From NCBI GenBank assembly GCA_041662295.1, contig JBAZSR010000003.1:13470-57726 (forward strand): a stretch of 44,257 nt of DNA. Reading direction: 5' to 3'. This DNA is from Elusimicrobiota bacterium (GTDB lineage Bacteria > Elusimicrobiota > Elusimicrobia > UBA1565 > UBA9628). The notes under the pieces are model-generated. The model ran no database searches. It was given only the letters and a program-made list of their open reading frames with translations, and was not told the origin of the DNA. Both the position numbers and the translations under genes were made by a program. This document shows, one piece after another, positions 1 to 44,257 of the stretch. Position 1 is the first letter of the stretch. Each line of letters begins with the position of its first letter.

Positions 1-1654
1 CGTCGATCTTCGGGGTCGCGGACCAGGCCAGGCCGTCGTCCCGCTTAAACTCCAGCGGTTCTCCGACGCGCAGTGAGAGCCCGCGCTCGAGCTCCCGATT
101 GACAGGCATGGGGGAAAGCCGGTCGCCCTGTCGGGGCACTCCGTGGAAGCGGACGACTCCGTCCATGACGAAGTTGACGAGGTGGAAGGGCAGGCTCGCC
201 GCTCCGGGCGCGGGGGTCGCCTGGACCTGGAGATGGAGGTGGGGCTCCAGCGAATACCCGGAATTGCCGCATTCGCCGAGCTTGCGGCCTGCCAGTACGT
301 AGTCTCCGACCGCGACGAGGACGGAGTCCTTGCGCAGGTGGGCGAGGATGGCGCAGACGCCGGAGAGGGAGCGCACGACCACGTAGTTGCCCCAGTTCTT
401 CTGGATCTCGGCCCTGCCGACAGGATTGTCCGGCAGGATCGAACAGACCGCGGCCACGTGGCCGTCGAACGGGGACAGCACGGGGCGGCCGAACGCGTGG
501 TGAGGCTCGAGGCTGCCGCCGTCTCCAGAGAAGGTCTTGCCGTCCTCTCCGAGGACCACGAAGTCGAGGCCGTGCCGCCATTGGCCGGTGTGCGTCAGCG
601 GGCCGTCGAAGCCCTGCTGGACCGCCCAAGTCCCCTCGAAGGGGCAGAACACGCCGACCTCGCTGCCGCCGTGCCGCAGCCGCAGCAGGCGCAGGCGGTC
701 GATGGTCTCCTCGGGCGTGCCGCCGTAGTCCGCGGCCAGGCGTGAGGGCTGGGTGCTGCGCACGCTGCGCAGGGCCAGCAGGACCGTGACGTTGAAGGGC
801 AGGGCCGTGATCGGGATGCGGAAGATCTCCCAGAAGGCCAAGCCCCCGGCCGTGACGAGACCGCCCATCAGGGTGCACGCGGCGGCCAGTCCCGTGGACG
901 AGGCCGACGGCACGAGGAAGACCGCGGCGATGGCGGGGAAGATGAGCGAGTAGTTGAAGAAATGGGGGTCGCTGGTGTTGAGCGGCGTCAGCTGGGTCAG
1001 GCTCTCCGCGAGGCACCCCAGGGAGAAGCCGATGACGGAGAAGGCGGCCATCAGCGGGGAGCGGCACGCGATGGCGGCGAGCAGGATGGCGCCGAAGAGG
1101 GGGTCCGGCATGCACAGGCAGGCGCCGAGCGAGCGCAGGAAATGCGATACGCCGGCCGGCAGGCCAGCGAAGACCGCGGGAGCCAGGTCCGTGAAGTACC
1201 AGGTGGCGTCGGTCAGGTTGGAGAACCGGCGGCCGGCCAGGGCCAGCAGCATGGCGGCCAAGGTGAACGGCACGGAGAGCACGGGCAGGCCCAGCAGGCT
1301 CAAGGCGGACTCGAGGAACAGGGTCAGCAGCAGGGTCAGCCCCGCCGTCAGGCAGATGAGGAGGCCGACCCCCGGCTCGAGCTTGAACAGGTAGCCGGCG
1401 AAGAGGCCGATGAGCAGTGAGTTGTAGAGCACGAACCCGCGGTAGGCCAGTGCCGGCCGGGAGCCCAGCAGCTGGAGCACGACGAAGCCGCTCAGCAGTC
1501 CGAGGAGTCCGGCCGCGCCGACATTCGGGTGGAGGAAGGTCGCGGCGGCCATGACCGCCCCGACCCAGGGGCTGTCGATGAAGAAGATCGCCGAGTAGGC
1601 GCCCGCGAGCGACCGGGCATGGCGGGACCAGGAGCCGTCAGGAGTCGTGTCCAT
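1..1654 (-). CDS. Fusion protein: N-terminal urea-transporter (UT)-like polytopic membrane domain + C-terminal M23 (LytM-type) metallopeptidase domain; C-terminus runs off the window (partial)
   Basis: Absent from the ORF track because no stop lies in the window. Hand translation of the minus strand from ATG 1654 gives MDTTPDGSWSRHARSLAGAYSAIFFIDSPWVGAVMAAATFLHPNVGAAGLLGLLSGFVV...RGFVLYNSLLIGLFAGY..., with UT-like motifs and multiple hydrophobic segments down to ~nt 790. This is followed by ...GPLTHTGQWRHGLDFVV...GNYVVVRS...GECGNSGYSLEPHLHLQVQ (M23 HxxxD and GxSGxSxxPHLH zinc motifs). An in-frame TGA at 1682-1684 makes ATG 1654 the first possible start; it overlaps the upstream gene by 17 nt. 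Listed ORF 45..1115 is the Pro/Arg-rich wrong frame. Confidence 0.8.
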   Translation of the reverse strand, partial: MDTTPDGSWSRHARSLAGAYSAIFFIDSPWVGAVMAAATFLHPNVGAAGLLGLLSGFVVLQLLGSRPALAYRGFVLYNSLLIGLFAGYLFKLEPGVGLLICLTAGLTLLLTLFLESALSLLGLPVLSVPFTLAAMLLALAGRRFSNLTDATWYFTDLAPAVFAGLPAGVSHFLRSLGACLCMPDPLFGAILLAAIACRSPLMAAFSVIGFSLGCLAESLTQLTPLNTSDPHFFNYSLIFPAIAAVFLVPSASSTGLAAACTLMGGLVTAGGLAFWEIFRIPITALPFNVTVLLALRSVRSTQPSRLAADYGGTPEETIDRLRLLRLRHGGSEVGVFCPFEGTWAVQQGFDGPLTHTGQWRHGLDFVVLGEDGKTFSGDGGSLEPHHAFGRPVLSPFDGHVAAVCSILPDNPVGRAEIQKNWGNYVVVRSLSGVCAILAHLRKDSVLVAVGDYVLAGRKLGECGNSGYSLEPHLHLQVQATPAPGAASLPFHLVNFVMDGVVRFHGVPRQGDRLSPMPVNRELERGLSLRVGEPLEFKRDDGLAWSATPKID

Positions 1655-2966
1655 GGCGGGGGAGGTCGGACTCGAGGGCCGTCACGTCCGAGAGGGTCTC
1701 GGCGCGGCGGATGACGAAAGGCTTGCCGGACTCGCGGATCATGACCACCGCGGGCCGGTACTGGATGAACTGCATCCACTGCGCGACGTTGTAGGCTCCG
1801 ACCGGGGAGAGGATCAGGGACTGCCCGCGGGAGAGCCGCGGCAGGAGGATCGCCTCGTCGACCACGTCGATGTTCATGCAGAGGGGCCCGAGCAGGATGG
1901 AGGGCTCCATGACGCCGCCCGTCTCGCGGTCGAGCTCGATCTTGAACTTGTACCAGGTCGCGGTGTAGAGGAGGTTGACCCCGGCGTCGAGGATGTAGGC
2001 CCTGCGGCCGTCCGGCAGCAGCTTGTCTGCGCAGACTGAGGTGATGAGGAAGCCCGCCTCGTCGACCAGGTGGCGCCCGTTCTCCAGGTAGAGCCGCGGG
2101 GGCGACTTGCGCGAGAGGAGCCACTTGAGCTGGCTGCCCATGGCCGCGGCGTAGGCCTCGACGCCAGGCACCGCGATCTCGGGGGGCTGGTAGACTCCCT
2201 TCAAGTGGCTGCGGCTCGGGATCCCGCCGCCCAGGTCGAGGTACTCGATGGGCTTGCCGGTCAGGCTCTCGGCCGTCCGGATGAAGGCGCTGAGCTTGGC
2301 CGCTGCGCGGCCGTAGGCCGAGGGATCCAGGATGAAGGTGCCGAGGTGGCAGTGAACGCCGGCCAGCTTGAGCGCCTTGCTGTTGATGATCCAGCGCACC
2401 GCGGCCGCGGCCTGGCCGCTCTCCAGGTTGAAGCCGAAGCGCGACCAGACGGGGTAGATGCCCGCGTCAAGGTTGACCCGGATGCCGACCTTGACGCGGA
2501 CCTTGAGCGCCTTGCCCGCGGCTTCGAGGTCCTCGAGCTCGTTGAAGTGGTCGACGTTGATGAGGGCCCCGTCGCGCACCGCGCGCTTCAGCGCCGCCAT
2601 GGGCTTGCAGGGGCCGTTGAAGATGATCTGGTCGCCTGGCACGCCGAGGCCGCGCGCCTTGTCGTATTCGAACGGGCTGACGACCTCGGCCAGGGCGCCC
2701 TCCTGGTGGAAGACGCGGCAGACCGCGGAGAGGTAGTTCGTCTTGTAGCTCCAGCCGAAGCGCACGTTGGGATAGACGCCATGGACCGCGGCGTAGGCCT
2801 GGCGGTACTTCTCTCGCATGACGCGCTCGGAGAAGACGAACAGGGGCGAGCCGAAATCCTTGACGAGGTCCTTCACCGCGGCTCCCTCGACGGACTCGCG
2901 GATGAGCGGATAGCTCTGCGCCGATGAGCCGTGCTTGGCGTAGAGGGGGTTGCCGACGCGCACCAT
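1638..2966 (-). CDS. PLP-dependent decarboxylase, Orn/DAP/Arg decarboxylase family (fold-type III)
   Basis: Distal 442 codons of listed ORF 1638..3263. Start moved to ATG 2966 (MVRVGNPLYAKHG...) because the upstream part is Pro/Arg-rich read-through overlapping the next gene. Family motifs: FGWSYKTNY (PLP-lysine region), LDLGGGIPS (Gly-rich loop), ENGRHLV, GPLCMNIDV. Confidence 0.85.
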   Translation of the reverse strand: MVRVGNPLYAKHGSSAQSYPLIRESVEGAAVKDLVKDFGSPLFVFSERVMREKYRQAYAAVHGVYPNVRFGWSYKTNYLSAVCRVFHQEGALAEVVSPFEYDKARGLGVPGDQIIFNGPCKPMAALKRAVRDGALINVDHFNELEDLEAAGKALKVRVKVGIRVNLDAGIYPVWSRFGFNLESGQAAAAVRWIINSKALKLAGVHCHLGTFILDPSAYGRAAAKLSAFIRTAESLTGKPIEYLDLGGGIPSRSHLKGVYQPPEIAVPGVEAYAAAMGSQLKWLLSRKSPPRLYLENGRHLVDEAGFLITSVCADKLLPDGRRAYILDAGVNLLYTATWYKFKIELDRETGGVMEPSILLGPLCMNIDVVDEAILLPRLSRGQSLILSPVGAYNVAQWMQFIQYRPAVVMIRESGKPFVIRRAETLSDVTALESDLPRHGHDS

Positions 2967-2989
2967 GCTGGGCCTGCTGTAGCGTTCGC

Positions 2990-4036
2990 TCACGCGCCCT
3001 CCCGGTTCCCTTTGGACAGGAGATTCTCGAAGGCCGACAGGTCCGTCACGAACTCCGAGGTCTGCCGCACGCAGAACCTGCCGGCCGCGTACTCGTCCTG
3101 GGCCGAGCAGCGCCCCCCCGCGACGAGCTCGAGGAGCTGGCGGGGGAGGTTCACGCCCGCGCCCGTGGCGAAGTGGACCCAGGCCGGGAAGCGAGGGTTG
3201 ATCTCGATGAGGTAGAGCCCGTCCTTGGCGCGGATGCACTCGAGTTCGAAAGGGCCGCGCCACTTGGTGGCGCGGCAGAAGCGCTCACTGAGGCGCTCGA
3301 GTTCGGGGTCGTGCACCGTGACCGCGGTCCAGACCTTGCCTAGGTGGGTCGTGAGCTGTTTCTTGATGACCACGCGGCCGCGGAGCTTCCCCTTGGCGTC
3401 CGAGAGGCCGATGAGGTTGAGCTCCGGCCCGTGCACGGGTTCCTGGAGCAGGAGCGGGTAGCCCCACTCCGCCGCGATCTCCGTGCCCTTCATGGCCGCG
3501 GCGTCGAGGTTGTGCACGAAGTAGGCCTTGTAGTACTTGCCCTTCACGATGGCCGGCAGGGGGAAGTCGGTCCGGAGCCTGCCGATCAGCTCGTCGATGC
3601 CGTGGACCACCGCGGTCCTCGGGTAGCGGCAGCCGGTCTTCTTCGCGAGGGCCGCCAGGCGATCCTTGCTGCGCAGGTCGAACTGCGCTTCCGTGGGGAG
3701 CAGGGTGCGGATGCCGGCCTTGGCGAGCTCAGCCTGGTGGCGGATGAGCAACGGCAGCTCGACGTCGAGGCAGGGGATCAGCACGTTCATCCCGGTCTTG
3801 GACCGGACCTTGTCGAGGCCGCTGGACAACTCGCTCCAGCCGCGCGTCGGGTAGGGCATGAGGAAGCTGTTCTCGAAGAGGTCGGTCAGATAGTTGCCGG
3901 GGTCGTGAACATCGTAGCTCAAGCCGATGAGCCTGATTCCGGGGAACGCGGCGGCCAGGCCCCGCGCCACGGCCACCCCAGGGCCGGGGTTGTCCGTGGC
4001 ATTGATGCCCGAGACTCCGACGCAGAGGTCCTTCAT
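2990..4036 (-). CDS. ATP-grasp fold carboxylate-amine ligase, substrate unknown
   Basis: Listed ORF 2990..4255 trimmed to ATG 4036 (MKDLCVGVSGINATDNPGPG...), which forms an ATGA overlap with the stop of the PqqD-like gene. PAIVKGKYYKAYFVHN...WGYPLLLQEPVHGPELNLIGL...LYLIEINPRFPAWVHFATGAGVNLP is a typical ATP-grasp signature. Confidence 0.8.
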   Translation of the reverse strand: MKDLCVGVSGINATDNPGPGVAVARGLAAAFPGIRLIGLSYDVHDPGNYLTDLFENSFLMPYPTRGWSELSSGLDKVRSKTGMNVLIPCLDVELPLLIRHQAELAKAGIRTLLPTEAQFDLRSKDRLAALAKKTGCRYPRTAVVHGIDELIGRLRTDFPLPAIVKGKYYKAYFVHNLDAAAMKGTEIAAEWGYPLLLQEPVHGPELNLIGLSDAKGKLRGRVVIKKQLTTHLGKVWTAVTVHDPELERLSERFCRATKWRGPFELECIRAKDGLYLIEINPRFPAWVHFATGAGVNLPRQLLELVAGGRCSAQDEYAAGRFCVRQTSEFVTDLSAFENLLSKGNREGA

Positions 4037-4272
4037 GAATTCGAGCGGATGATGTCGATCTCGGCCTTGAAGACCAGCAGGTCCGTCATGGCGCGGTCCT
4101 GGTCGATGCCGAACTTCTTCGCGACCTCGGCCGCGATCTGCTCGTCCGTCAAACCGCGGCGCAGACGCTCGATGATGGCCTTGGCCGCGGGGTTGAGCTG
4201 GAAGCTCTCCCCGGTCTGCGGGTCGAACGCCATGCCTGTCGCACTGAGGTTCCAATGCTTGATGTCGGCCAT
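4033..4272 (-). CDS. PqqD-like small protein (RiPP-recognition-element type peptide-binding domain), 79 aa
   Basis: C-terminal 79 codons of listed ORF 4033..5013: MADIKHWNLSATGMAFDPQTGESFQLNPAAKAIIERLRRGLTDEQIAAEVAKKFGIDQDRAMTDLLVFKAEIDIIRSNS. The pattern (beta strands, then LN-x-aa-x-i-x-x-L, then a three-helix segment with ...D-x-x-x-F...) matches PqqD family proteins. G-rich SD (GAGGGGGGGAGA) lies 6-7 nt upstream of ATG 4272. Confidence 0.75.
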   Translation of the reverse strand: MADIKHWNLSATGMAFDPQTGESFQLNPAAKAIIERLRRGLTDEQIAAEVAKKFGIDQDRAMTDLLVFKAEIDIIRSNS

Positions 4273-4303: not shown

Positions 4304-5065
4304 TCAGCGCCGGCCCCTGCCGCCCCCGCCTCCGCGGCTGTTGCGGGAGCCGGCTCCGCGATTGCCCACTCCCTGGCCGGAATTGCCGCCGCCCCGGTGG
4401 TGGCCGCTGTTCCCCGCCTTTTCCCTCTGGGTGGACCTGTTCTCGGCGCGGTCGCGGACATCCTCCCTGCGGTCGGCCCTGTTCTCAGCGCGGTCTCGGA
4501 CATCCTCTTGCCGGTCCTTCCTGTCCTCTTTCCGGTCGCGGACATCTTCCCTGGCGTCGCGCACGTCCTCGCGCTTGTCGCGGAGCCCGCCGTTGTGCCT
4601 GGCGTCACGGACATCCTCCCGCCTGTCGCGGACGTCTTCCCTGCGGTCGACCTTGTTTTCCGCGCGGTCTCGGACATTTTCGCGGCGGTCGGCCCTGTTC
4701 TCGGCGCGGTCGCGGCGGTCCTCTTTGCGGTCGCGGACGTCCTCCCGCTGGTCGCGGCGCTCCTCTTTCCTGTCGCGGACCCGCTCTCCCGTCCCCTGGG
4801 CGTCGTTCGCCGCGCCCGGTTGGTTGTTGCCGCGGTCCTTGTCGTGGCCGTAGGCGTTGCCGCCGGTCGGGACCGCTGGGGTGGCGCCGCTGCCAGGGAG
4901 GCCCGGGTCAGCCGGGACCGTGCCGGAGCCTGTCTGCTTGTCGGACCCCGCGGCCTTGTCGCTGGCGTTGTCCGACTGCGCTTGTAAAGGAAGGGCCGCG
5001 AATGCCGCCCCAAGAGCGACGATCAAGGCCAGGCCCAGCCAGTTCAGCGCGCGATGATTCTTCAT
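4304..5065 (-). CDS. Secreted, extremely charged heptad-repeat protein (253 aa) with Gly/Arg-rich C-terminus
   Basis: Listed ORF 4304..5152 trimmed to ATG 5065, preceded by GGAGGAGA 8 nt upstream. Sec-type signal peptide MKNHRALNWLGLALIVALGAAFAALPLQAQ|S. Residues 93-213 are ~17 consecutive x-E-(D/N)-(V/R)-(R/A)-D-R heptads (REDVRDR, KEDRRDR, AENRADR...). Tail is ...GHHRGGGNSGQGVGNRGAGSRNSRGGGGGRGRR. Confidence 0.8.
   Translation of the reverse strand: MKNHRALNWLGLALIVALGAAFAALPLQAQSDNASDKAAGSDKQTGSGTVPADPGLPGSGATPAVPTGGNAYGHDKDRGNNQPGAANDAQGTGERVRDRKEERRDQREDVRDRKEDRRDRAENRADRRENVRDRAENKVDRREDVRDRREDVRDARHNGGLRDKREDVRDAREDVRDRKEDRKDRQEDVRDRAENRADRREDVRDRAENRSTQREKAGNSGHHRGGGNSGQGVGNRGAGSRNSRGGGGGRGRR
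4427..4789 (-). repeat. ~17 tandem 21-bp (heptad-coding) repeats inside the secreted-protein gene
   Basis: Periodicity is visible in all translated frames of this stretch (e.g. + strand SRTSSLRS... repeats). One unit is irregular (RHNGGLRDK, 9 residues). Confidence 0.85.
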
Positions 5066-5135
5066 ATTCAGTGTCTCCTCCATCGAGATGTCGTTTGTCA
5101 GGGGCCGGAGCAGCCTCAGTCCCCCTCCACGATAT

Positions 5136-5161
5136 AGACGTAAAGGCCGCATTTTGGTTTA
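5136..5161 (-). promoter_or_regulatory. Putative ECF-type promoter of the repeat-protein/PqqD/ATP-grasp/decarboxylase/M23 operon (TAAACC-N15-CGTCTA)
   Basis: Minus strand reads gTAAACCaaaatgcggctttaCGTCTAta, ~70 nt upstream of ATG 5065. It has the same -35/-10-like words and identical spacing as the motif upstream of the divergent ECF sigma gene. AAC-N16-CGT is the generic ECF promoter architecture. Confidence 0.45.
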
Positions 5162-5231
5162 CTTGGAAAATTGCTTAAAACTGCAATCGATTTTATAGCA
5201 TACGAAAATCGTCCCCGCCAGCGGCATCCAC

Positions 5232-5257
5232 TAAACCTCCGGCATGTCTTCGCGTCT
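5232..5257 (+). promoter_or_regulatory. Putative autoregulated ECF-type promoter of the sigma/anti-sigma pair (TAAACC-N15-CGTCTT)
   Basis: cTAAACCtccggcatgtcttcgCGTCTTaa ends 18 nt before the GTG start at 5276, within the only AT-rich stretch of the region. Confidence 0.45.
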
Positions 5258-5275
5258 TAATGACAGGCAGGCAAC

Positions 5276-5842
5276 GTGAGCGACCACGACTTCGACGCTG
5301 AGATCGTTGAGCGCAGCCGCAAAGGCGATGCCGAGGCTTTTGGGACCCTGGTCGCCCATTATCAGCGCCTGCTGACAGGCGTCGCGTTCGGGGTGGTGGG
5401 AGACCCGGCAATGACTGAGGATCTGGTGCAGGAGGCGTTCATCGCGGCATGGAAGGCCCTTCCAAAATATAGGGGGGACGCCAGCTTCAAGAACTGGCTC
5501 TGCCGCATCCTTCTCAACAAGGCTTATTCCGCGCTGCGGTGGGGCCGCTTGCGCAAGTGGGTCAGCCTTGACGGGCCTGCTGAGACGCCCTGGGCCGAGA
5601 CTCTTCCGGACACGGCCCCGGACGCAAGCCCGGAGGGAGTCCTTCTCAAGGAAGAGCGCTCAGCAGCCGTGCGCAAGGCTGTTGAGGTCCTCCCGCTCCA
5701 GCAGAGGACAGCAGTGGTCCTGCGCGCCAACGGTCTGGACGTGGCCGAGGTGGCGGCGGCAATGGGCGTGGCAGAGGGAACGGTCAAGGCGCACCTGCAT
5801 CACGCGCGCGCCAAGCTCTCTCCGCTGGTGGAAGGGACATGA
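5276..5842 (+). CDS. ECF (group 4) sigma-70 family RNA polymerase sigma factor
   Basis: 188 aa, GTG start. Region 2 (DLVQEAFIAAWKAL...F.NWLCRILLN) and region 4 HTH (LPLQQRTAVVLRANGLDVAEVAAAMGVAEGTVKAHLHHARAKL). Confidence 0.9.
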   Translation: MSDHDFDAEIVERSRKGDAEAFGTLVAHYQRLLTGVAFGVVGDPAMTEDLVQEAFIAAWKALPKYRGDASFKNWLCRILLNKAYSALRWGRLRKWVSLDGPAETPWAETLPDTAPDASPEGVLLKEERSAAVRKAVEVLPLQQRTAVVLRANGLDVAEVAAAMGVAEGTVKAHLHHARAKLSPLVEGT

Positions 5843-7350
5843 ACCAGGATAACGACAACGAGTTCTGGTCCAAAACAGGGGACAGCTTAAAGCCCAGGCT
5901 GAGCGAGGCTCAGTGGACGGCTCAGCGGGCCCGCATCATGGGCCGGCTGGCCCAGGGCTCAGGCGCTGGCCGGCTGGCGGCCTGGGTCGCTGCTGCTGCC
6001 CTCGCGTGCCTGGCCGGCCTGGGCATCCTCCTGCCCTGGGGGAAGTCCAAGCCCGCGCCCGAAGGCCAGACCGTGACCCAGGCTCCGGTCCAGATATCCT
6101 CAGCAGCTCCCGCGGCTGCGGCCGGCGCATGGGACAGCCGCATCACCATGACGCAGGGCACGGTGACGTTCTTCGTCCGCGGCAGCACCGAGGGCGTCCC
6201 CGCGGTCGAGGGCATGCCGCTCGAGGAGGGCGACCGGGTGCGGACCGGCGCAGACGGCCGGGCGGAGCTCGCGCTCTCGGCCGAGAGCATCATCGACCTC
6301 GGGCCCGTGTCCGCGATCACCCTCTCCGACCTCAGGCAGGACCAGACCCTCCTCGGTCTCGACGTGGGCACGCTCGTCGCCAAGCTCAGCTGGAAGCTTC
6401 TTCCGGGCAGGCAGCTCTCGGTCGTGACCCCGACCGCGGTCTGCGCGGTGCGCGGCACCGAGTTCGGCGTGGAGGTCCAGGAGGGCGGCGGGACCGCCAT
6501 CGGCGTCTTCGACGAGGGCAGGGTGGCGGTCCGGACCGCGGGGGATTCCGGCGTCGAAGAGACGATGCTCGAGCCCAGGCAGGAGGTCCGAGTGCCTGCC
6601 GGCGCTGTTCCCGAGACCGAAGCGCGGGACGGTCGTCGCTACCTCCGCGTAGGCGAGCTTTCCAGCCTCAAGCCCCAGCAGGAGCGGATGAATGTCGTGC
6701 GCGAGCGGCCGCAGGCCCTGGCCGGCGCGTGGAAGCCGATGGCTCTATCCGAGCGCGAGCAGGCCCGTGGCCGCGTCATGTCTGAGCACCAGGGCCGCAT
6801 GCAGGCCATGCCTCTTGAACAGCGGCGTTCCATGCAGGAGCGCGTGCGCCAGTCTCAGCCCGGCCAGGCCGGGCCTGGAGACCGCGGTCCTTCCCATGAC
6901 TCCGGGCAGAGGCGGCAGGATGGCGGCCGGAGCCAAGACCGCGGCCGGCCCGGGGAGGAAGGGGCGAGGAAGCCCGAGGAGCCTGGAGGGCCGGCTCAGG
7001 AGCGGGACATGCCTCCGGACAGCCGGCCCCGGCAGGCTGAACCAGGGCAGAGGCTCGTCCCTGAGTCAGGCCAGCGGCCCGGGACCGAGCCAGGCCAGGA
7101 TCGCGAACCCGGGGCCCAAGGGGATCGTTCACCCGGCGGCATGCAGGAACGGCAGGGACCTGAGCGCGGTCAGGCTCCAGGGGCCCGCCAGGGGCCAGAG
7201 CGCCAGCAAGGCGCCGGGCAGAGGCAGGGCCCTGAGCGCAGGCAAGGGCCGGACCGCAGGCCCGGCGGCAACATGCGTCCTCCGGGCGGCCAGCACCGGC
7301 CGCAGGGCGGGGGCCAGAGGCGTCCCGCGCCCGGCGGCCGTAGGCATTGA
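5839..7350 (+). CDS. FecR-domain anti-sigma factor: single TM, periplasmic FecR domain, long Gln/Gly/Pro/Arg low-complexity tail
   Basis: ATGA overlap with the sigma gene. TM is AAWVAAAALACLAGLGILL. FecR-like segments: GDRVRTGADGRAELALSAESIIDLGPVSAITL ... VVTPTAVCAVRGTEFGVEV. The last ~170 aa are repetitive (RQGPERxQG...). Confidence 0.8.
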   Translation: MNQDNDNEFWSKTGDSLKPRLSEAQWTAQRARIMGRLAQGSGAGRLAAWVAAAALACLAGLGILLPWGKSKPAPEGQTVTQAPVQISSAAPAAAAGAWDSRITMTQGTVTFFVRGSTEGVPAVEGMPLEEGDRVRTGADGRAELALSAESIIDLGPVSAITLSDLRQDQTLLGLDVGTLVAKLSWKLLPGRQLSVVTPTAVCAVRGTEFGVEVQEGGGTAIGVFDEGRVAVRTAGDSGVEETMLEPRQEVRVPAGAVPETEARDGRRYLRVGELSSLKPQQERMNVVRERPQALAGAWKPMALSEREQARGRVMSEHQGRMQAMPLEQRRSMQERVRQSQPGQAGPGDRGPSHDSGQRRQDGGRSQDRGRPGEEGARKPEEPGGPAQERDMPPDSRPRQAEPGQRLVPESGQRPGTEPGQDREPGAQGDRSPGGMQERQGPERGQAPGARQGPERQQGAGQRQGPERRQGPDRRPGGNMRPPGGQHRPQGGGQRRPAPGGRRH

Positions 7351-7386: not shown

Positions 7387-7728
7387 TCAGGCTTGGCCTG
7401 ATTCGAGCTTCTTGATGCGGCCTTCGTGGTCCGTGACCTGGACTTTCATCTCGGTCAGGGATTGGCCGTGGAGTGTCGTCGCCCTGTCGTAGTTCTGGGA
7501 CTTCCCCGCGAAGGAGTCGATGGCTCCGAGGATGCGGTTGATGTCTTCCTTTGTGGCAAGGCCGGCCAGGGTCTCTTTGACTTCGTAGAGATCGGACTGG
7601 GTCTTGACGATCTCCAGGGCGAGGCGGTGGACGGAGGTGTCTATCTTCTGGTCGAGTTCCGCCCGCAATGCGCGGAGGTCTCCCTTCGTGGCCGGCTGAT
7701 CCGCGTCAGCGTGGAGCATTGAGTCCAT
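7387..7728 (-). CDS. Small predicted coiled-coil protein, unknown function (paralogue A, 113 aa)
   Basis: Complete ORF with GGAGGAAT SD. N-terminal 15 aa and C-terminal ~60 aa are near-identical to ORF 8393..8713; the centre is divergent. Confidence 0.7.
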   Translation of the reverse strand: MDSMLHADADQPATKGDLRALRAELDQKIDTSVHRLALEIVKTQSDLYEVKETLAGLATKEDINRILGAIDSFAGKSQNYDRATTLHGQSLTEMKVQVTDHEGRIKKLESGQA

Positions 7729-7834: not shown

Positions 7835-8384
7835 ATGAACAGAAACGCCGTGGGGGGAGGCGGCCAGGATGCGGCTGTGGTGGGGGGGGTGGAGGACTAC
7901 GCGTTTGTAGCCGACGTGCCGGGCGCTGAGGCCAATGCCAAGGCGTGGTACGACTACCTTGCCGAGACGCGCGGCGTGCCCGCTGCCAGCATCAAGCTCC
8001 TGACAGGCGTTGATGCCACGCGCGACGAGATGCTCGATCGAGCGCTACAGCCCTCTTGTGGCCGTGACTATGGGAGGTCCCGCTGACCCGAGGATGGCGG
8101 TGCTGACAGCGGCCAAGGCCGACCAGTTCGCGGGCTCCCTGCCCGGGACCAAGAGGCCGGCGTTCAGCTACCTGGTGCTGGGAGGTCTGCGCGGCTGGGC
8201 GGCGGAGGGCAAGAAGGCCGCGCTGACAGCAGGCGACCTCTGGGAGCATCCTACGGGCTCCTTCCGGGTCTTACGCGGCGGGTCCTGGTGCCTCGACGTC
8301 GCCAGGCACTTCCGGGCCGCGTTCCGCATCTACAACGACCCGAGCTGCCGGGACGACGGTATCGGCTTCCGGCCCGCCCGCTGA
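7835..8384 (+). pseudogene. Decayed remnant of a caspase-like (C14) / FGE-sulfatase-modifying-factor domain gene
   Basis: Two frames are needed (ORFs 7835..8086 and 8010..8384). N-terminal piece: ...ADVPGAEANAKAWYDYLAETRGVPAASIKLLTGVDATRDEML (pre-catalytic-His part of caspase-type domains). Then ...PAFSYLVLGGLRGWAAEGKKAALTAGDL (post-Cys segment). It ends with RVLRGGSWCLDVARHFRAAFRIYNDPSCRDDGIGFRPAR (last ~40 aa of an FGE domain). The catalytic cores of both domains are missing. Confidence 0.6.
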
Positions 8385-8392
8385 AGGTAGAC

Positions 8393-8713
8393 TCAGGCTT
8401 GGCCTGATTCGAGCTTCTTGATGCGGACTTCGTGATCCGTGACCTGGACTTTCATCTCGGTCAAGGATTGGCCGTGGAGTGTCGCCGCCCTGTCGTAGTT
8501 CTGGGACTTCCCCGCGAAGGAGTCGATGGCTCCGAGGATGCGGTTGACGTCGTTCTTCGTGGCCATGGTATGCCGGATATCTTGGACGTCAGATTGAAGC
8601 TTGATGATCTCCGTGACAAGGCGGTGGACGGACGCATCCACCTTCTTGTCGAGCAGGTGGAGCTCTCCCTTCGTGGCCGGCTGATCCGCGTCAGCGTGGA
8701 GCATCGGGTCCAT
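8393..8713 (-). CDS. Small predicted coiled-coil protein, unknown function (paralogue B, 106 aa)
   Basis: Complete ORF; see paralogue A. Confidence 0.7.
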   Translation of the reverse strand: MDPMLHADADQPATKGELHLLDKKVDASVHRLVTEIIKLQSDVQDIRHTMATKNDVNRILGAIDSFAGKSQNYDRAATLHGQSLTEMKVQVTDHEVRIKKLESGQA

Positions 8714-8939: not shown

Positions 8940-11438
<2,499 letters not shown>

Positions 11439-39748: not shown

Positions 39749-41277
<1,529 letters not shown>

Positions 41278-41442
41278 AACACTTCCTTAGTCTCACGACT
41301 AGGGGAGCCTGTCGACCCCGCTTAGCGGGATGCCTGTTGGCACGCAAATGCTACGGAAGAGTCAAGGCTCTTCCAATCATCGTCCGCTCCTCATTATATG
41401 AGGAAGGTCCCTTTTCCGCCCTGCAGTCCTGGGCGAGACCTA

Positions 41443-41514
41443 GGGCTCGTAGCTCAGGGGTAGAGCACACGCTTGATAAGCGTGGGGTCGGAGGTTCGAG
41501 ACCTCCCGGGCCCA
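41443..41514 (+). tRNA. tRNA-Ile (anticodon GAT)
   Basis: Cloverleaf folds by hand: acceptor GGGCTCG/CGGGCCC, anticodon loop CTTGATAAG, T-arm GGAGGTTCGAGACCTCC. CCA not encoded. Confidence 0.93.
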
Positions 41515-41553
41515 TGTTTTTCAGCGGTTCCGGAGGCTGGGCAGCCGATTTCA

Positions 41554-41626
41554 GGGCTCATAGCTCAGCTGGGAGAGCGCCTGCTTTGCAAGCAGGAGGT
41601 CGCCGGTTCGAATCCGGCTGGGTCCA
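41554..41626 (+). tRNA. tRNA-Ala (anticodon TGC)
   Basis: Acceptor stem with G3:U70 identity pair, anticodon loop CTTTGCAAG, T-arm GCCGGTTCGAATCCGGC. CCA not encoded. Confidence 0.93.
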
Positions 41627-41647
41627 CGGAGCGGCACGACAGATTTT

Positions 41648-41660
41648 CGTTCATTGACAA
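41648..41660 (+). promoter_or_regulatory. Second boxA-like element in the tRNA-23S spacer
   Basis: CGTTCATTGACAA; same core as the leader copy. Confidence 0.45.
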
Positions 41661-41795
41661 TCGGCGTTCCAACACCTCGATGCACCGTATCCTGTAAAGA
41701 CCCCGAAAGGGGGCGGGGAGCGGCGAGCGGAGGGAAGGAGAACATAGAAGCGTCTCACTGCCGTATTCTGCATTGCAGAGTGCGATGGAAGAATA

Positions 41796-44257
<2,462 letters not shown>

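Follow-up and report, generated by a model that had tools for sequence, protein, structure and literature searches.

In the rhizoferrin pathway of Francisella, an NIS synthetase (FslA) carries out a ligation and FslC/FigC, the N-citrylornithine decarboxylase, then decarboxylates the amide-linked amino acid. The butirosin side-chain pathway likewise couples an ATP-grasp enzyme (BtrJ) with a fold-III PLP-dependent decarboxylase (BtrK) acting on a conjugated amino acid, BtrI being the carrier. PylC, the 3-methylornithine–lysine ligase, yields an Nε-acyl-lysine with a free α-amino acid group. RiPP recognition elements (RREs), in turn, are otherwise known to bind peptides. In those of the lasso-peptide B1 proteins, a hydrophobic cleft receives the YxxP motif together with a conserved Leu (PMC6784204). 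The locus described here belongs to a widespread ligase–decarboxylase–channel cassette with a function so far unassigned; a literature search found no paper on the cassette, nor on an RRE with this enzyme pair, in keeping with the original prediction that such a combination was undescribed.

Gene organization and distribution

The window, the whole 44,257-nucleotide stretch of Elusimicrobiota DNA that was analysed, contains three co-directional minus-strand open reading frames that occupy exactly positions 1638–4272. These frames and their Pfam matches, with scores far in excess of chance matches, bear out the trio of PqqD-like protein, ATP-grasp enzyme and PLP-dependent decarboxylase that had been proposed. 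The first cassette gene (4033–4272, minus strand) encodes a PqqD-type RRE of 79 residues (PF05402, 34.8 bits; gathering threshold 23.4). It is followed by the gene for an ATP-grasp carboxylate–amine ligase-like enzyme of 348 residues (2990–4036, minus strand; PF15632, 35.9 bits; threshold 29.1) and that for an FslC-like fold-III PLP-dependent decarboxylase of 451 residues (1638–2993, minus strand; PF02784, 100 bits; PF00278, 38 bits). The most probable start of the decarboxylase is GTG 2993 rather than ATG 2966: it keeps the N-terminal motif conserved in relatives, and GGGAGGG precedes it. The trio is incomplete: the fourth gene of the operon encodes a fusion of a urea-transporter (UT) domain with an M23 metallopeptidase domain (UT::M23), which starts at position 1654 and exits the window at its left end (1–1654, minus strand), so that more than 551 residues lie in the window; its relatives have 675–720. 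Successive start and stop codons overlap, as ATGA (PqqD/ATP-grasp), GTGA (ATP-grasp/decarboxylase) and over 17 nucleotides (decarboxylase/UT::M23). The UT::M23 gene, the wide distribution of the cassette and the leader-like tail of the decarboxylase were absent from the original prediction.

The cassette gave at least 570 matches among genomes representing 185,579 species. Synteny was counted in 80 fetched loci from species genomes of more than 12 phyla, and the order RRE, ATP-grasp, decarboxylase, UT::M23 is kept in these wherever the contigs allow. Hosts include Elusimicrobia, Bdellovibrionota, Pelagibacterales, Campylobacterota, Aquificota, Planctomycetota, Verrucomicrobiota, Cyanobacteria, Thermodesulfobacteriota, Myxococcota and Ignavibacteria, among others, and the complete genome of an isolate, Thermovibrio ammonificans HB-1, carries the cassette. 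The cassette comprises four to six genes with the trio as its core: the PqqD gene immediately precedes the ATP-grasp gene in 75 of 76 loci, the decarboxylase gene adjoins the latter in all 72 loci and UT::M23 is present in 58 of the 61 with room for it. Genes for an outer-membrane-like protein and TPR proteins often come after UT::M23, and the cassette is nearly confined to diderm bacteria. Natural fusions join PqqD to the ATP-grasp enzyme (P0464) and the ATP-grasp enzyme to the decarboxylase (P0432). The latter fusion and the invariant adjacency uphold the earlier view that ligase and decarboxylase form a functional pair. The repeat protein encoded upstream, which had been put forward as a candidate substrate, occurs in one of the 80 loci, that of a close relative, which argues against this role.

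The encoded proteins and the decarboxylase tail

The profile of the RRE family matches the lasso B1 proteins TfuB1 (PDB 6JX3) and TbiB1 (5V1U) best (each with an E value of about 3e-11), ahead of PqqD (3G2B; 5e-4). Its C-terminus is variable, and no invariant acidic, nucleophilic or attachment residue was found in the family comparison. The protein is a canonical RRE, and the suggestion that it serves as a carrier of the BtrI or LysW type is not supported.

The AlphaFold2 model of the ATP-grasp enzyme (pLDDT 89) has a complete three-domain ATP-grasp fold. Among the Foldseek matches listed, 2PN1 ranks first, ahead of biotin carboxylase, CPS, PurD and L-amino-acid ligases; the sequence profile matches 2PN1, CPS and PylC. 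Invariant features of the family are the 'IEINPRF' motif (Glu278, Asn280 and Arg282) and an N-terminal 'SGINATDNPGPG' motif. The LysX and RimK families, to which the original prediction had related the enzyme, are absent both from the profile matches and from the 50 listed Foldseek matches, and with such neighbours that assignment is not supported. CPS and biotin carboxylase are bicarbonate-activating enzymes, and their presence among the structural neighbours leaves room for an enzyme that might carboxylate instead of ligating. Public annotations name it 'carbamoyl-phosphate synthase large subunit'.

By sequence, the decarboxylase scores 195 bits against FslC/FigC (7KH2), 127 against the best LysA and 70 against BtrK; 7KH2 is also the closest solved structure, on which it superimposes with an r.m.s.d. 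of 2.2 Å (Foldseek E value 1.5e-36, 31% identity). It lies below both curated family cut-offs (FslC, 216 against 500; LysA, 191 against 297.9). The catalytic Lys, the His, the GGG loop and the Arg are retained, and a Cys–Met pair and a Thr/Trp/Tyr set on the specificity helix are invariant across the family and across phyla. The Asp or Arg employed by ODC and DAPDC for free substrates (residue roles from PMC7857480) is missing from the enzyme, as are the DAP-binding Arg and Glu. This FslC-like pocket points to a substrate of about the size of an amino-acid conjugate. The earlier proposal that a conjugated amino acid is decarboxylated is likewise favoured by FslC, the nearest characterized relative, which takes an amide-linked amino acid. 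Identity with LysA, which the original prediction had singled out for checking, was rejected on the score, on the differing specificity residues and on the closer match to FslC; public annotations name the protein 'diaminopimelate decarboxylase' or 'alanine racemase'.

The decarboxylase carries an N-terminal extension (about residues 1–27; positions 2913–2993, minus strand) that is missing from FslC and LysA in the alignments. It contains the leader-like motif Y-S-R-P-S-M (2964–2981), which conforms to Y-x-x-P-x-[ILMVF] in all 67 decarboxylases compared and to Y-x-x-P-x-[LIMV] at a single aligned column in 69 of 70; in a type II tail (L084) the motif is displaced by one residue. Its spacing is that of the lasso leader motif YxxPxL, and it was found in none of the other cassette proteins. 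Residues 1–25 are predicted with a pLDDT of 44–50 and without secondary structure, yet they are conserved; the low values could arise simply because the monomer was predicted without its dimer partner. The P0432 linker retains the motif, and therefore pure co-localization cannot be its whole purpose there. No conserved small open reading frame lies upstream of, within or downstream of the cassette in the 80 loci, which are flanked by unrelated housekeeping genes, and flanking small frames with YxxPxL (69) were no more numerous than expected from shuffling (74). The RRE appears to grip the tail of the decarboxylase itself rather than a separate peptide.

In the fourth protein, the UT domain (PF03253, 130 bits, residues 19–295) matches dvUT (3K3F) from end to end and has the conserved pore motifs. 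The M23 domain (PF01551, 45 bits, residues 389–479) matches the NCBIfam families MepM, ShyA and Pgp3; His356, Asp365, His440, His473 and His475 (numbering of locus L001) are conserved across the family and are taken to be the catalytic set. In L034 a hydrophobic segment lies between the post-M23 region and a fused TPR domain, which places the M23 domain in the cytoplasm. Variant (type II) cassettes have a full Sir2 domain in place of M23, with or without a GNAT domain. Sirtuins are an Nε-acyl-lysine deacylase family. Characterized UT pores are narrow, admitting amides about the size of urea, and an N-acyl diamine may be too bulky for such a pore.

Proposed role and alternative readings

We tentatively favour, as a reading with somewhat less than an even chance of being correct, the view that the trio forms the cytoplasmic core of a biosynthetic or processing cassette, widespread but uncharacterized, in which an RRE seated on the ATP-grasp enzyme clamps the decarboxylase tail. 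The gene order would then represent, with the same reservation, an RRE, an ATP-grasp enzyme, an FslC-like decarboxylase and a UT channel fused to an amide-cleaving domain. The ATP-grasp enzyme would couple a carboxylate and an amine at the expense of ATP, giving an amino acid with a side-chain amide and free α-amino and α-carboxyl groups, for example an N-acylated diamino acid. Homology and pocket residues suggest that the decarboxylase would strip the α-carboxylate from this conjugate to leave an N-acyl amine, as FslC does with N-citrylornithine. The PqqD-like protein would not serve as a carrier and would not bind a separate precursor; by holding the disordered YxxPx[ILM] tail it would assemble a ligase–RRE–decarboxylase complex, as suggested by the motif, the subtype of the RRE, the disorder predicted for the tail and the natural fusions. 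The UT-fused cytoplasmic domain (M23, or sirtuin with or without GNAT in the variant) would trim or deacylate the amide product, and a small neutral amide or amine would probably leave, or a substrate enter, through the UT pore and the outer-membrane and TPR components.

An unlikely possibility is that the tail is itself the substrate, shown by the RRE to the ATP-grasp enzyme. An amino acid such as Glu or Asp would be attached by its side-chain carboxyl to an amine of the tail (Lys16, or Gly18 after cleavage by M23). It would then lose its carboxylate in cis, in the manner of BtrI/BtrJ/BtrK, before M23 or the sirtuin released it. This scheme resembles the original prediction with a different carrier. 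Counted from the invariant Tyr, the tail has Lys at position 16 in 60 of 68 sequences, Phe, Tyr or His at 17 and Gly at 18 in 56 of 68; the lasso YxxPxL spans −17 to −12, which aligns tail position 16 with Thr(−2) of lasso precursors and tail position 18 with their core residue +1. The cassette moreover combines three lasso-type activities (B1-like RRE, peptidase and ATP-dependent amide ligase), the motif is kept in the P0432 linker, where docking alone would be redundant, and a sirtuin can stand in for M23. However, Lys16 has exceptions (Pro in L076; no Lys anywhere in the P0432 tail), Gly18 is confined to the 56 sequences and we know of no enzyme that carries its own RiPP-like substrate. Rather improbable is a genuine RiPP pathway, or one built on a scaffold peptide (pearlin-like or LysW-like), in which the RRE would bind the terminus of a peptide or protein whose gene lies elsewhere in the genome, the ATP-grasp enzyme would add an amino acid to it, the decarboxylase would alter the added residue and M23 or the sirtuin would free the product. 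A canonical RRE of an otherwise peptide-binding class does head the operon, the peptidase or deacylase domain is conserved, and scaffold-peptide pathways with an unrelated ligase are known (10.1101/2024.03.12.584671). Against it stand the lack of a conserved small open reading frame near or inside the 80 loci, the expectation that a cassette moved over more than 12 phyla would bring its substrate gene along, and an ATP-grasp enzyme outside the RimK/LysX and graspetide types.

Two further readings have a slight chance each. A role in urea, amide or nitrogen handling, in which UT imports urea or a small amide, the ATP-grasp enzyme carboxylates or ligates it and the decarboxylase and amidase domains supply the last steps of salvage or catabolism, would suit the conventional, full-length urea-channel homologue and the CPS and biotin carboxylase neighbours. 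One type II locus also adjoins Amt and GlnK, but at a single genomic place (L088), the shorter contigs L089 and L090 stopping before it; biotin carrier, urease, allophanate hydrolase and amidotransferase are not conserved in the cassette, and the pocket points to a conjugate-sized substrate. It is similarly improbable that M23 and a DAP-decarboxylase-like enzyme process meso-DAP muropeptides that the ATP-grasp enzyme re-ligates, with the outer-membrane and TPR proteins providing the envelope connection. Peptidoglycan endopeptidase is the classical role of M23 peptidases, the decarboxylase belongs to a clade containing DAPDC and the hosts are almost all diderm with frequent outer-membrane and TPR genes; yet the prediction puts the M23 domain in the cytoplasm, a sirtuin can replace it, the DAP-binding residues are missing and the conserved neighbours include no Mur or Ldc-type genes. 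Finally, the public labels would fit chance-neighbour housekeeping genes (LysA or ornithine decarboxylase with an unrelated ligase), but the LysA score and specificity residues disagree, and the four-gene order invariant across phyla, the overlapping codons and the natural fusions effectively refute this reading, which we consider barely credible.

Comparison with described systems

The likeness to the lasso B1 proteins lies in the RRE profile, in a nearly invariant YxxPx[ILM] of identical spacing and in the accompanying peptidase and ATP-dependent amide-forming enzyme. The cassette motif, however, is on the N-terminus of a 450-residue enzyme and not on a short precursor peptide; a B2 transglutaminase-like protease and an Asn-synthetase-like cyclase are absent, and a PLP-dependent decarboxylase and a membrane channel are added. 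LysW/LysX also pairs a small-protein gene with an ATP-grasp gene, and the cassette has a metallopeptidase that could perform the release step, but an acidic C-terminus is not conserved in the PqqD-like protein and the ligase is not LysX/RimK-like. PylC is the sole characterized single-module carboxylate–amine ligase among the stronger profile matches (E value 2.5e-4), and a product of its type could, by analogy, be of the kind that an FslC-like decarboxylase takes; the similarity is very weak (23 bits) and other pyl genes are absent. In the butirosin pathway the small partner is an acyl carrier protein, whereas the cassette has an RRE and no phosphopantetheinyl carrier, and BtrK, although a detectable homologue, is much more distant than FslC or LysA (Foldseek rank 35).

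Francisella rhizoferrin biosynthesis differs in its ligase, an NIS synthetase instead of an ATP-grasp enzyme, and in its MFS exporter, and FslC has no RRE partner, N-terminal tail or UT-fused amidase. The window decarboxylase scores far below the FslC family cut-off and has Gln for Arg387 and Trp for Thr330 of FslC, Arg387 having been treated as flexible when the citryl ligand was docked. The two enzymes nevertheless have in common the Cys–Met pair and the specificity-helix Thr and Tyr (PMC7857480) and, with FslC as the nearest relative, this pocket signature supports a scheme of ligation followed by decarboxylation.

Gene organization in the window

Three co-directional genes on the minus strand fill the interval 1638–4272 and encode a PqqD-type protein, an ATP-grasp protein and a PLP-dependent decarboxylase, which bears out the gene assignments of the original prediction. 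The trio that it described is nevertheless incomplete, as a fusion of a urea-transporter (UT) domain to an M23 metallopeptidase domain (UT::M23) forms a fourth gene. The PqqD-type protein (4033–4272, minus strand) consists of 79 residues and matches PF05402 with 34.8 bits against a gathering threshold of 23.4. The ATP-grasp protein (2990–4036, minus strand; 348 residues) scores above the threshold of PF15632 and its AF2 model has a pLDDT of 89. The decarboxylase (1638–2993, minus strand) belongs to fold type III, matches PF02784 and PF00278 and contains 451 residues when translated from the GTG codon at 2993. This codon, rather than the annotated ATG at 2966, is most likely to be the start, since it alone retains the N-terminal motif common to all relatives and is preceded by GGGAGGG. 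The UT::M23 gene starts at 1654 on the minus strand and runs off the window edge; six-frame translation of positions 1–1700 gave 130 bits for the UT domain (PF03253) and 45.5 bits for M23 (PF01551). Stop and start codons overlap along the operon (ATGA, GTGA and 17 nt).

The gene at 4304–5065 (minus strand), which encodes a secreted protein of 253 residues with a signal peptide and a long Arg/Glu/Asp-rich repeat run (EDVRDRKEDRRDR...), stops 31 nt 5′ of the PqqD start codon. This protein had been considered as a substrate; a homologue was found only in the close relative L002 and is absent even from L001, a locus 87% identical to the window, which places the gene outside the conserved cassette and led us to drop the proposal. 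Divergent from the cassette are genes for an ECF sigma factor (5276–5842, plus strand) and a FecR-type anti-sigma factor whose long tail is rich in Pro, Gly, Arg and Gln (5839–7350, plus strand). The same pair adjoins the cassette in L001 and L002, and the regulators near the cassette elsewhere vary, including two-component systems, sigma-54 activators and Ser/Thr kinases. Two paralogues of 106–113 residues (7387–7728 and 8393–8713, both minus strand) have near-identical C-terminal halves (...NRILGAIDSFAGKSQNYDRA.TLHGQSLTEMKVQVTDHE.RIKKLESGQA); between them lies an ORF (8010–8384) whose C-terminus resembles, by eye, a fragment of formylglycine-generating enzyme. The fall in G+C from ∼0.68 to ∼0.55 is owing to an rRNA operon (39749–44257, plus strand) comprising 16S, tRNA-Ile GAT, tRNA-Ala TGC and a 23S gene cut by the window end.

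Distribution and variants of the cassette

A scan with the ATP-grasp alignment gave at least 570 matches in genomes standing for 185,579 species. The best 80 of these were analysed as loci, with each gene counted only where the contig leaves room. They span Elusimicrobia (the relatives of the window, with 85–87% identity), Bdellovibrionota, Pelagibacterales, Campylobacterota, Aquificota, Planctomycetota, Verrucomicrobiota, Cyanobacteria, Thermodesulfobacteriota, Myxococcota, Ignavibacteria and others. Among these 80, a PqqD ORF lies immediately 5′ of the ATP-grasp gene in 75 of 76 loci, and the decarboxylase and UT–M23 genes are present in 72 of 72 and 58 of 61, respectively. Downstream follow an outer-membrane-like protein of ∼290 residues with a signal peptide and a C-terminal Phe (36 of 54 loci), for which Pfam and NCBIfam scans gave no match, and TPR proteins (43 of 54). 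Genes past the cassette borders are unrelated (ClpP/Def, flagellar genes, regulators and others), and all six cassette genes stand together in the complete genome of Thermovibrio ammonificans HB-1. Other isolates with complete or draft genomes also carry the cassette, for example Thermodesulfatator autotrophicus. In an exhaustive HMMER search covering 1.84 billion cluster representatives (50% identity), 287 proteins matched at E ≤ 1e-30 and 1,521 at E ≤ 1e-10. At L015, a tandem duplication spans the PqqD gene and the initial third of the ATP-grasp gene (4709–5343 and 5606–6879); it is either real or an assembly artefact.

The public names of the cassette proteins are generic (‘carbamoyl-phosphate synthase large subunit’, ‘alanine racemase’, ‘diaminopimelate decarboxylase’ and ‘PqqD family protein’). 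Scans of all cassette proteins against Pfam and NCBIfam revealed only PqqD, ATP-grasp, Orn/DAP/Arg decarboxylase, UT, M23 and TPR domains, and no curated NCBIfam model attains its cut-off for any member. Some members are named ‘HPr-rel-A system PqqD family peptide chaperone’ at NCBI; we treat this as an over-call because the locus contains no HprK-related kinase and the window protein falls under the cut-off of the model. A full-text literature search found no description of the cassette, in agreement with the earlier statement that an RRE coupled to this enzyme pair is undescribed; a 2026 paper gives UT and M23 merely as a newly seen domain combination. Six cassette proteins gave no PADLOC match, and a role in anti-phage defence was rejected. 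Plasmid carriage was likewise rejected, the sole match being a distant homologue (32% identity) in an unrelated Streptomyces context. The sole support for Slam-like outer-membrane export is a faint TPR_Slam match (E of 0.014). The cassette is real, wider than first described and uncharacterised.

Natural fusions join PqqD to ATP-grasp (P0464) and ATP-grasp to the decarboxylase (P0432, with a linker that retains YVRPSI), thereby linking the RRE with the ligase and the latter with the decarboxylase. In a type II cassette (L084, L088, L089 and L091, from metagenome and MAG contigs) the order is PqqD, tandem double ATP-grasp, decarboxylase and UT::Sir2, with two ATP-grasps or one intact and one degenerate copy; the decarboxylase tails read YEPPRI or YQPPLI. 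At L091, UT::Sir2::GNAT acetyltransferase takes the place of UT::M23. The L088 cassette adjoins Amt and GlnK genes. The Sir2 domains are full length (121–136 bits) and carry, by eye, the GAGxS, TQNVDGLH, His and CxxC motifs that are typical of sirtuins. In L085–L087, which have the ATP-grasp::decarboxylase fusion, a 637-residue protein without a Pfam match takes the place of the UT fusion; its C-terminus resembles, by eye, a class III nucleotide cyclase, and a large PAS/histidine-kinase hybrid gene lies downstream of it.

The UT–M23 proteins have 675–720 residues, including an extra conserved C-terminal stretch of ∼200 residues. The UT domain aligns end to end with dvUT (3K3F) with conserved LPVLSxPF and IPxxTLPF pore motifs, and a transport function is predicted from this homology. 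M23 residues H356, D365, H440, H473 and H475 (L001 numbering), which are at least 90% conserved in 62 sequences, are taken to be zinc ligands and catalytic residues. In L034 the post-M23 region is set apart from a fused TPR domain by a hydrophobic segment, from which a cytoplasmic location of M23 and a periplasmic one of the TPR proteins are predicted. As judged from sequence, the UT pore invariably carries a cytoplasmic enzyme domain that processes amides or acyl amines.

The enzymes, the RRE and the decarboxylase tail

The closest solved structure to the window decarboxylase is the N-citrylornithine decarboxylase FslC (also called FigC; Foldseek E of 1.5e-36, r.m.s.d. of 2.2 Å, 31% identity). 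Sequence comparison gave 195 bits for FslC, 127 for the best LysA, 97 for D-ornithine/lysine decarboxylase and 70 for BtrK (Foldseek rank 35). The protein scores below the cut-offs of both the LysA model TIGR01048 (191.1 versus 297.9 bits) and the FslC model NF041039 (215.9 versus 500 bits). The catalytic Lys, His, GGG loop and Arg all align. In the GPLCMN segment a Met follows the catalytic Cys as in FigC, where lysine/ornithine decarboxylase, ADC and DAPDC have Asp (PMC7857480). The specificity helix carries T335/W338/Y339 at the positions of FigC T327/T330/Y331; the Asp for a free basic side chain and the Arg for the DAP carboxylate are both absent (PMC7857480). These signature residues are invariant in 35 family members from many phyla. 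The enzyme is not LysA, given its score under the cut-off, the missing Arg and the Met. Cys-Met together with Thr/Tyr rather than Asp/Arg forms the FslC-type signature for an N-acylated substrate, which suggests an amino acid with its side chain already amide-linked; ligation would then precede decarboxylation. An internal Y-Q-P-P-E-I (residues ∼267–272; about 2177–2194, minus strand) also fits YxxPx[LIMV]; it sits in a lower-confidence loop of the AF2 model, and the pattern occurs in 71% of the family.

An IEINPRF Mg/ATP motif and an N-terminal SGINATDNPGPG loop are invariant in the ATP-grasp family. Its sequence profile matches the uncharacterised 2PN1 (59 bits), CPS (25 bits) and PylC (23 bits), and Foldseek puts 2PN1 first, with biotin carboxylase, CPS, PurD and L-amino-acid ligases next. 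Neither RimK nor LysX occurs among the profile matches or the 50 Foldseek matches listed, which does not support the LysX/RimK type considered earlier, and D-Ala-D-Ala ligases reach a profile E of only ∼0.2 and are absent among the same 50. Given these neighbours and the missing RimK/LysX, the enzyme looks like a small-molecule ligase, and neither a LysX-type protein-tail ligase nor a housekeeping enzyme.

The PqqD-like family profile matches the lasso B1 RREs TfuB1 and TbiB1 (E of ∼3e-11) ahead of PqqD (5e-4), and among NCBIfam models the lasso PqqD chaperone scores best. Aligned, 70 members have the features of a canonical RRE, with conservation limited to the Gly of ‘TGxSF’, the Asn of ‘LN’ and the D...F of the final helix. 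Their C-termini are variable with no invariant acidic residue, and the protein is therefore not a LysW-like carrier. Four members (P0130, P0143, P0160 and P0164) have 138 residues, with an N-terminal extension of ∼60 residues echoing the RRE β-sheet and first helix (KLAVKDESFVLNQTT.NDFQVNRTNLLVFNEL), which may have arisen by duplication of part of the domain or may represent an in-frame ORF upstream.

A precursor was sought among small ORFs 5′ of PqqD, in gene maps of seven loci, among the nearest upstream genes in 70 loci and in 9,722 small ORFs. No conserved small ORF lies upstream, downstream or inside the cassette in the 80 loci, and the separate precursor gene that marks an RRE-dependent RiPP cluster was not found there. 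YxxPx[LIMV] occurs in the 9,722 small ORFs of the flanks at chance level (69 observed, 74 expected), and with nothing conserved in any of these scans a linked precursor peptide was rejected. In the T. ammonificans HB-1 locus (L081; CP002444), a 44-residue ORF (11287–11421) between the ATP-grasp and decarboxylase genes encodes a lipoprotein-type signal peptide and, after it, a Cys-rich peptide (CCPCTKRCFNPCKPCKPCKCLRR); occurring in this locus only, it was discarded as a general precursor.

The decarboxylases of the cassette all begin with an extension of ∼33 residues that is specific to the family and not in the FslC and LysA alignments (MSERYSRPSMVRVGNPLYAKHGSS in the window). Numbered from its invariant Tyr, this tail has Tyr at position 1 (68/68), Lys or Arg at 3 (64/68), Pro at 4 (68/68), Ile, Leu or Met at 6 (67/68), Lys at 16 (60/68) and Gly at 18 (56/68). 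The motif falls at a single aligned column in 69 of 70 decarboxylases and is conserved in no other cassette protein. Tail residues 1–25 have no secondary structure in the AF2 model, with pLDDT values of 44–50 against >90 for most remaining residues; as the model is of a monomer, this apparent disorder could stem from the absent dimer partner. Conservation without packing typifies linear docking motifs. In lasso leaders YxxPxL lies at −17 to −12 (PMC10368454), and their YxxP motif and Leu enter a hydrophobic cleft of the B1 RRE (PMC6784204). In the lasso register, tail positions 16 and 18 match Thr(−2) and core residue +1.

Proposed pathway and comparison with known systems

We tentatively favour a pathway in which a ligase–decarboxylase complex, held together by the RRE, would convert an amide-linked amino acid to an N-acyl amine; the UT-fused hydrolase would then process this product, which would pass the UT-type pore and the components of the outer membrane. 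The product, probably a small N-acyl amine or amide, is inferred, as are the substrates and the binding of the tail by the RRE. Of the original prediction of carrier-tethered ligation followed by decarboxylation, the order of steps agrees with the FslC-like pocket and its presumed amide-linked substrate, whereas the PqqD-like protein as the carrier finds no support. A possible, somewhat less probable proposal is that the RRE has been repurposed for a lasso-leader-like peptide borne by an enzyme, in the decarboxylase tail or the fusion linker and in the lasso register, with a small amine/amide product either built by the cassette on the tail or made by a channelling complex that the tail helps to assemble. 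This would make the cassette a lasso-like trio (B1-type RRE, peptidase/deacylase and ATP-dependent amide ligase) with an added PLP decarboxylase and urea-channel-type pore.

In the main rival reading, the tail would serve as a built-in carrier comparable to BtrI or LysW. This would rescue the tethered chemistry with another carrier, but neither L076 nor the tail of the P0432 fusion has Lys16, and we regard the reading as rather unlikely. An unlinked scaffold peptide as the RRE ligand is more doubtful still. Urea or nitrogen handling and muropeptide processing both appear improbable. That these are housekeeping genes is hardly credible.

In the favoured pathway of an RRE-assembled complex, the use of the RRE is mechanistically unusual. 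RRE domains serve as class-independent beacons in RiPP genome mining; a large RRE family without a precursor peptide, seemingly binding an enzyme's own tail, would alter how RRE matches are read and widen the known roles of the domain. If the repurposing is true, it would represent a new class of RRE-dependent, precursor-less pathway in more than 12 phyla. The cassette, among the more widespread uncharacterised operons documented here, couples ATP-dependent ligation and PLP decarboxylation with an amide-cleaving domain joined to a urea-channel homologue, and its product could be a new class of metabolite in chemolithoautotrophs, planctomycetes, cyanobacteria, predatory bacteria and freshwater oligotrophs.

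Ligate-then-decarboxylate chemistry is already known in another form; an enzyme-borne leader would be new. Compared with butirosin BtrI/BtrJ/BtrK, the cassette has no phosphopantetheinyl carrier domain, and its decarboxylase, with 70 bits against 195 for FslC, is not orthologous to BtrK. The LysW/LysX system needs a carrier with a conserved acidic C-terminus and an ATP-grasp of the LysX/RimK clade; the C-termini of the PqqD-like proteins vary, and neither LysX nor RimK is among the profile matches or the 50 Foldseek matches listed. It differs from graspetide maturases in the lack of a precursor and in an ATP-grasp nearest to 2PN1, CPS, biotin carboxylase, PurD and PylC; a graspetide survey mentions no such neighbourhood (PMC8939145). 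Against the lasso A/B1/B2/C set, Pfam and NCBIfam scans of all cassette proteins revealed neither a B2 transglutaminase-like leader peptidase nor an Asn-synthetase-like cyclase. With FslC/FigC, the decarboxylase shares Cys-Met and the helix Thr and Tyr and differs in Trp338, where FigC has Thr330. The lasso YxxPxL spacing recurs in 69 of 70 sequences, yet at the N-terminus of the decarboxylase rather than on a precursor peptide; this decarboxylase motif may be what the RRE binds.
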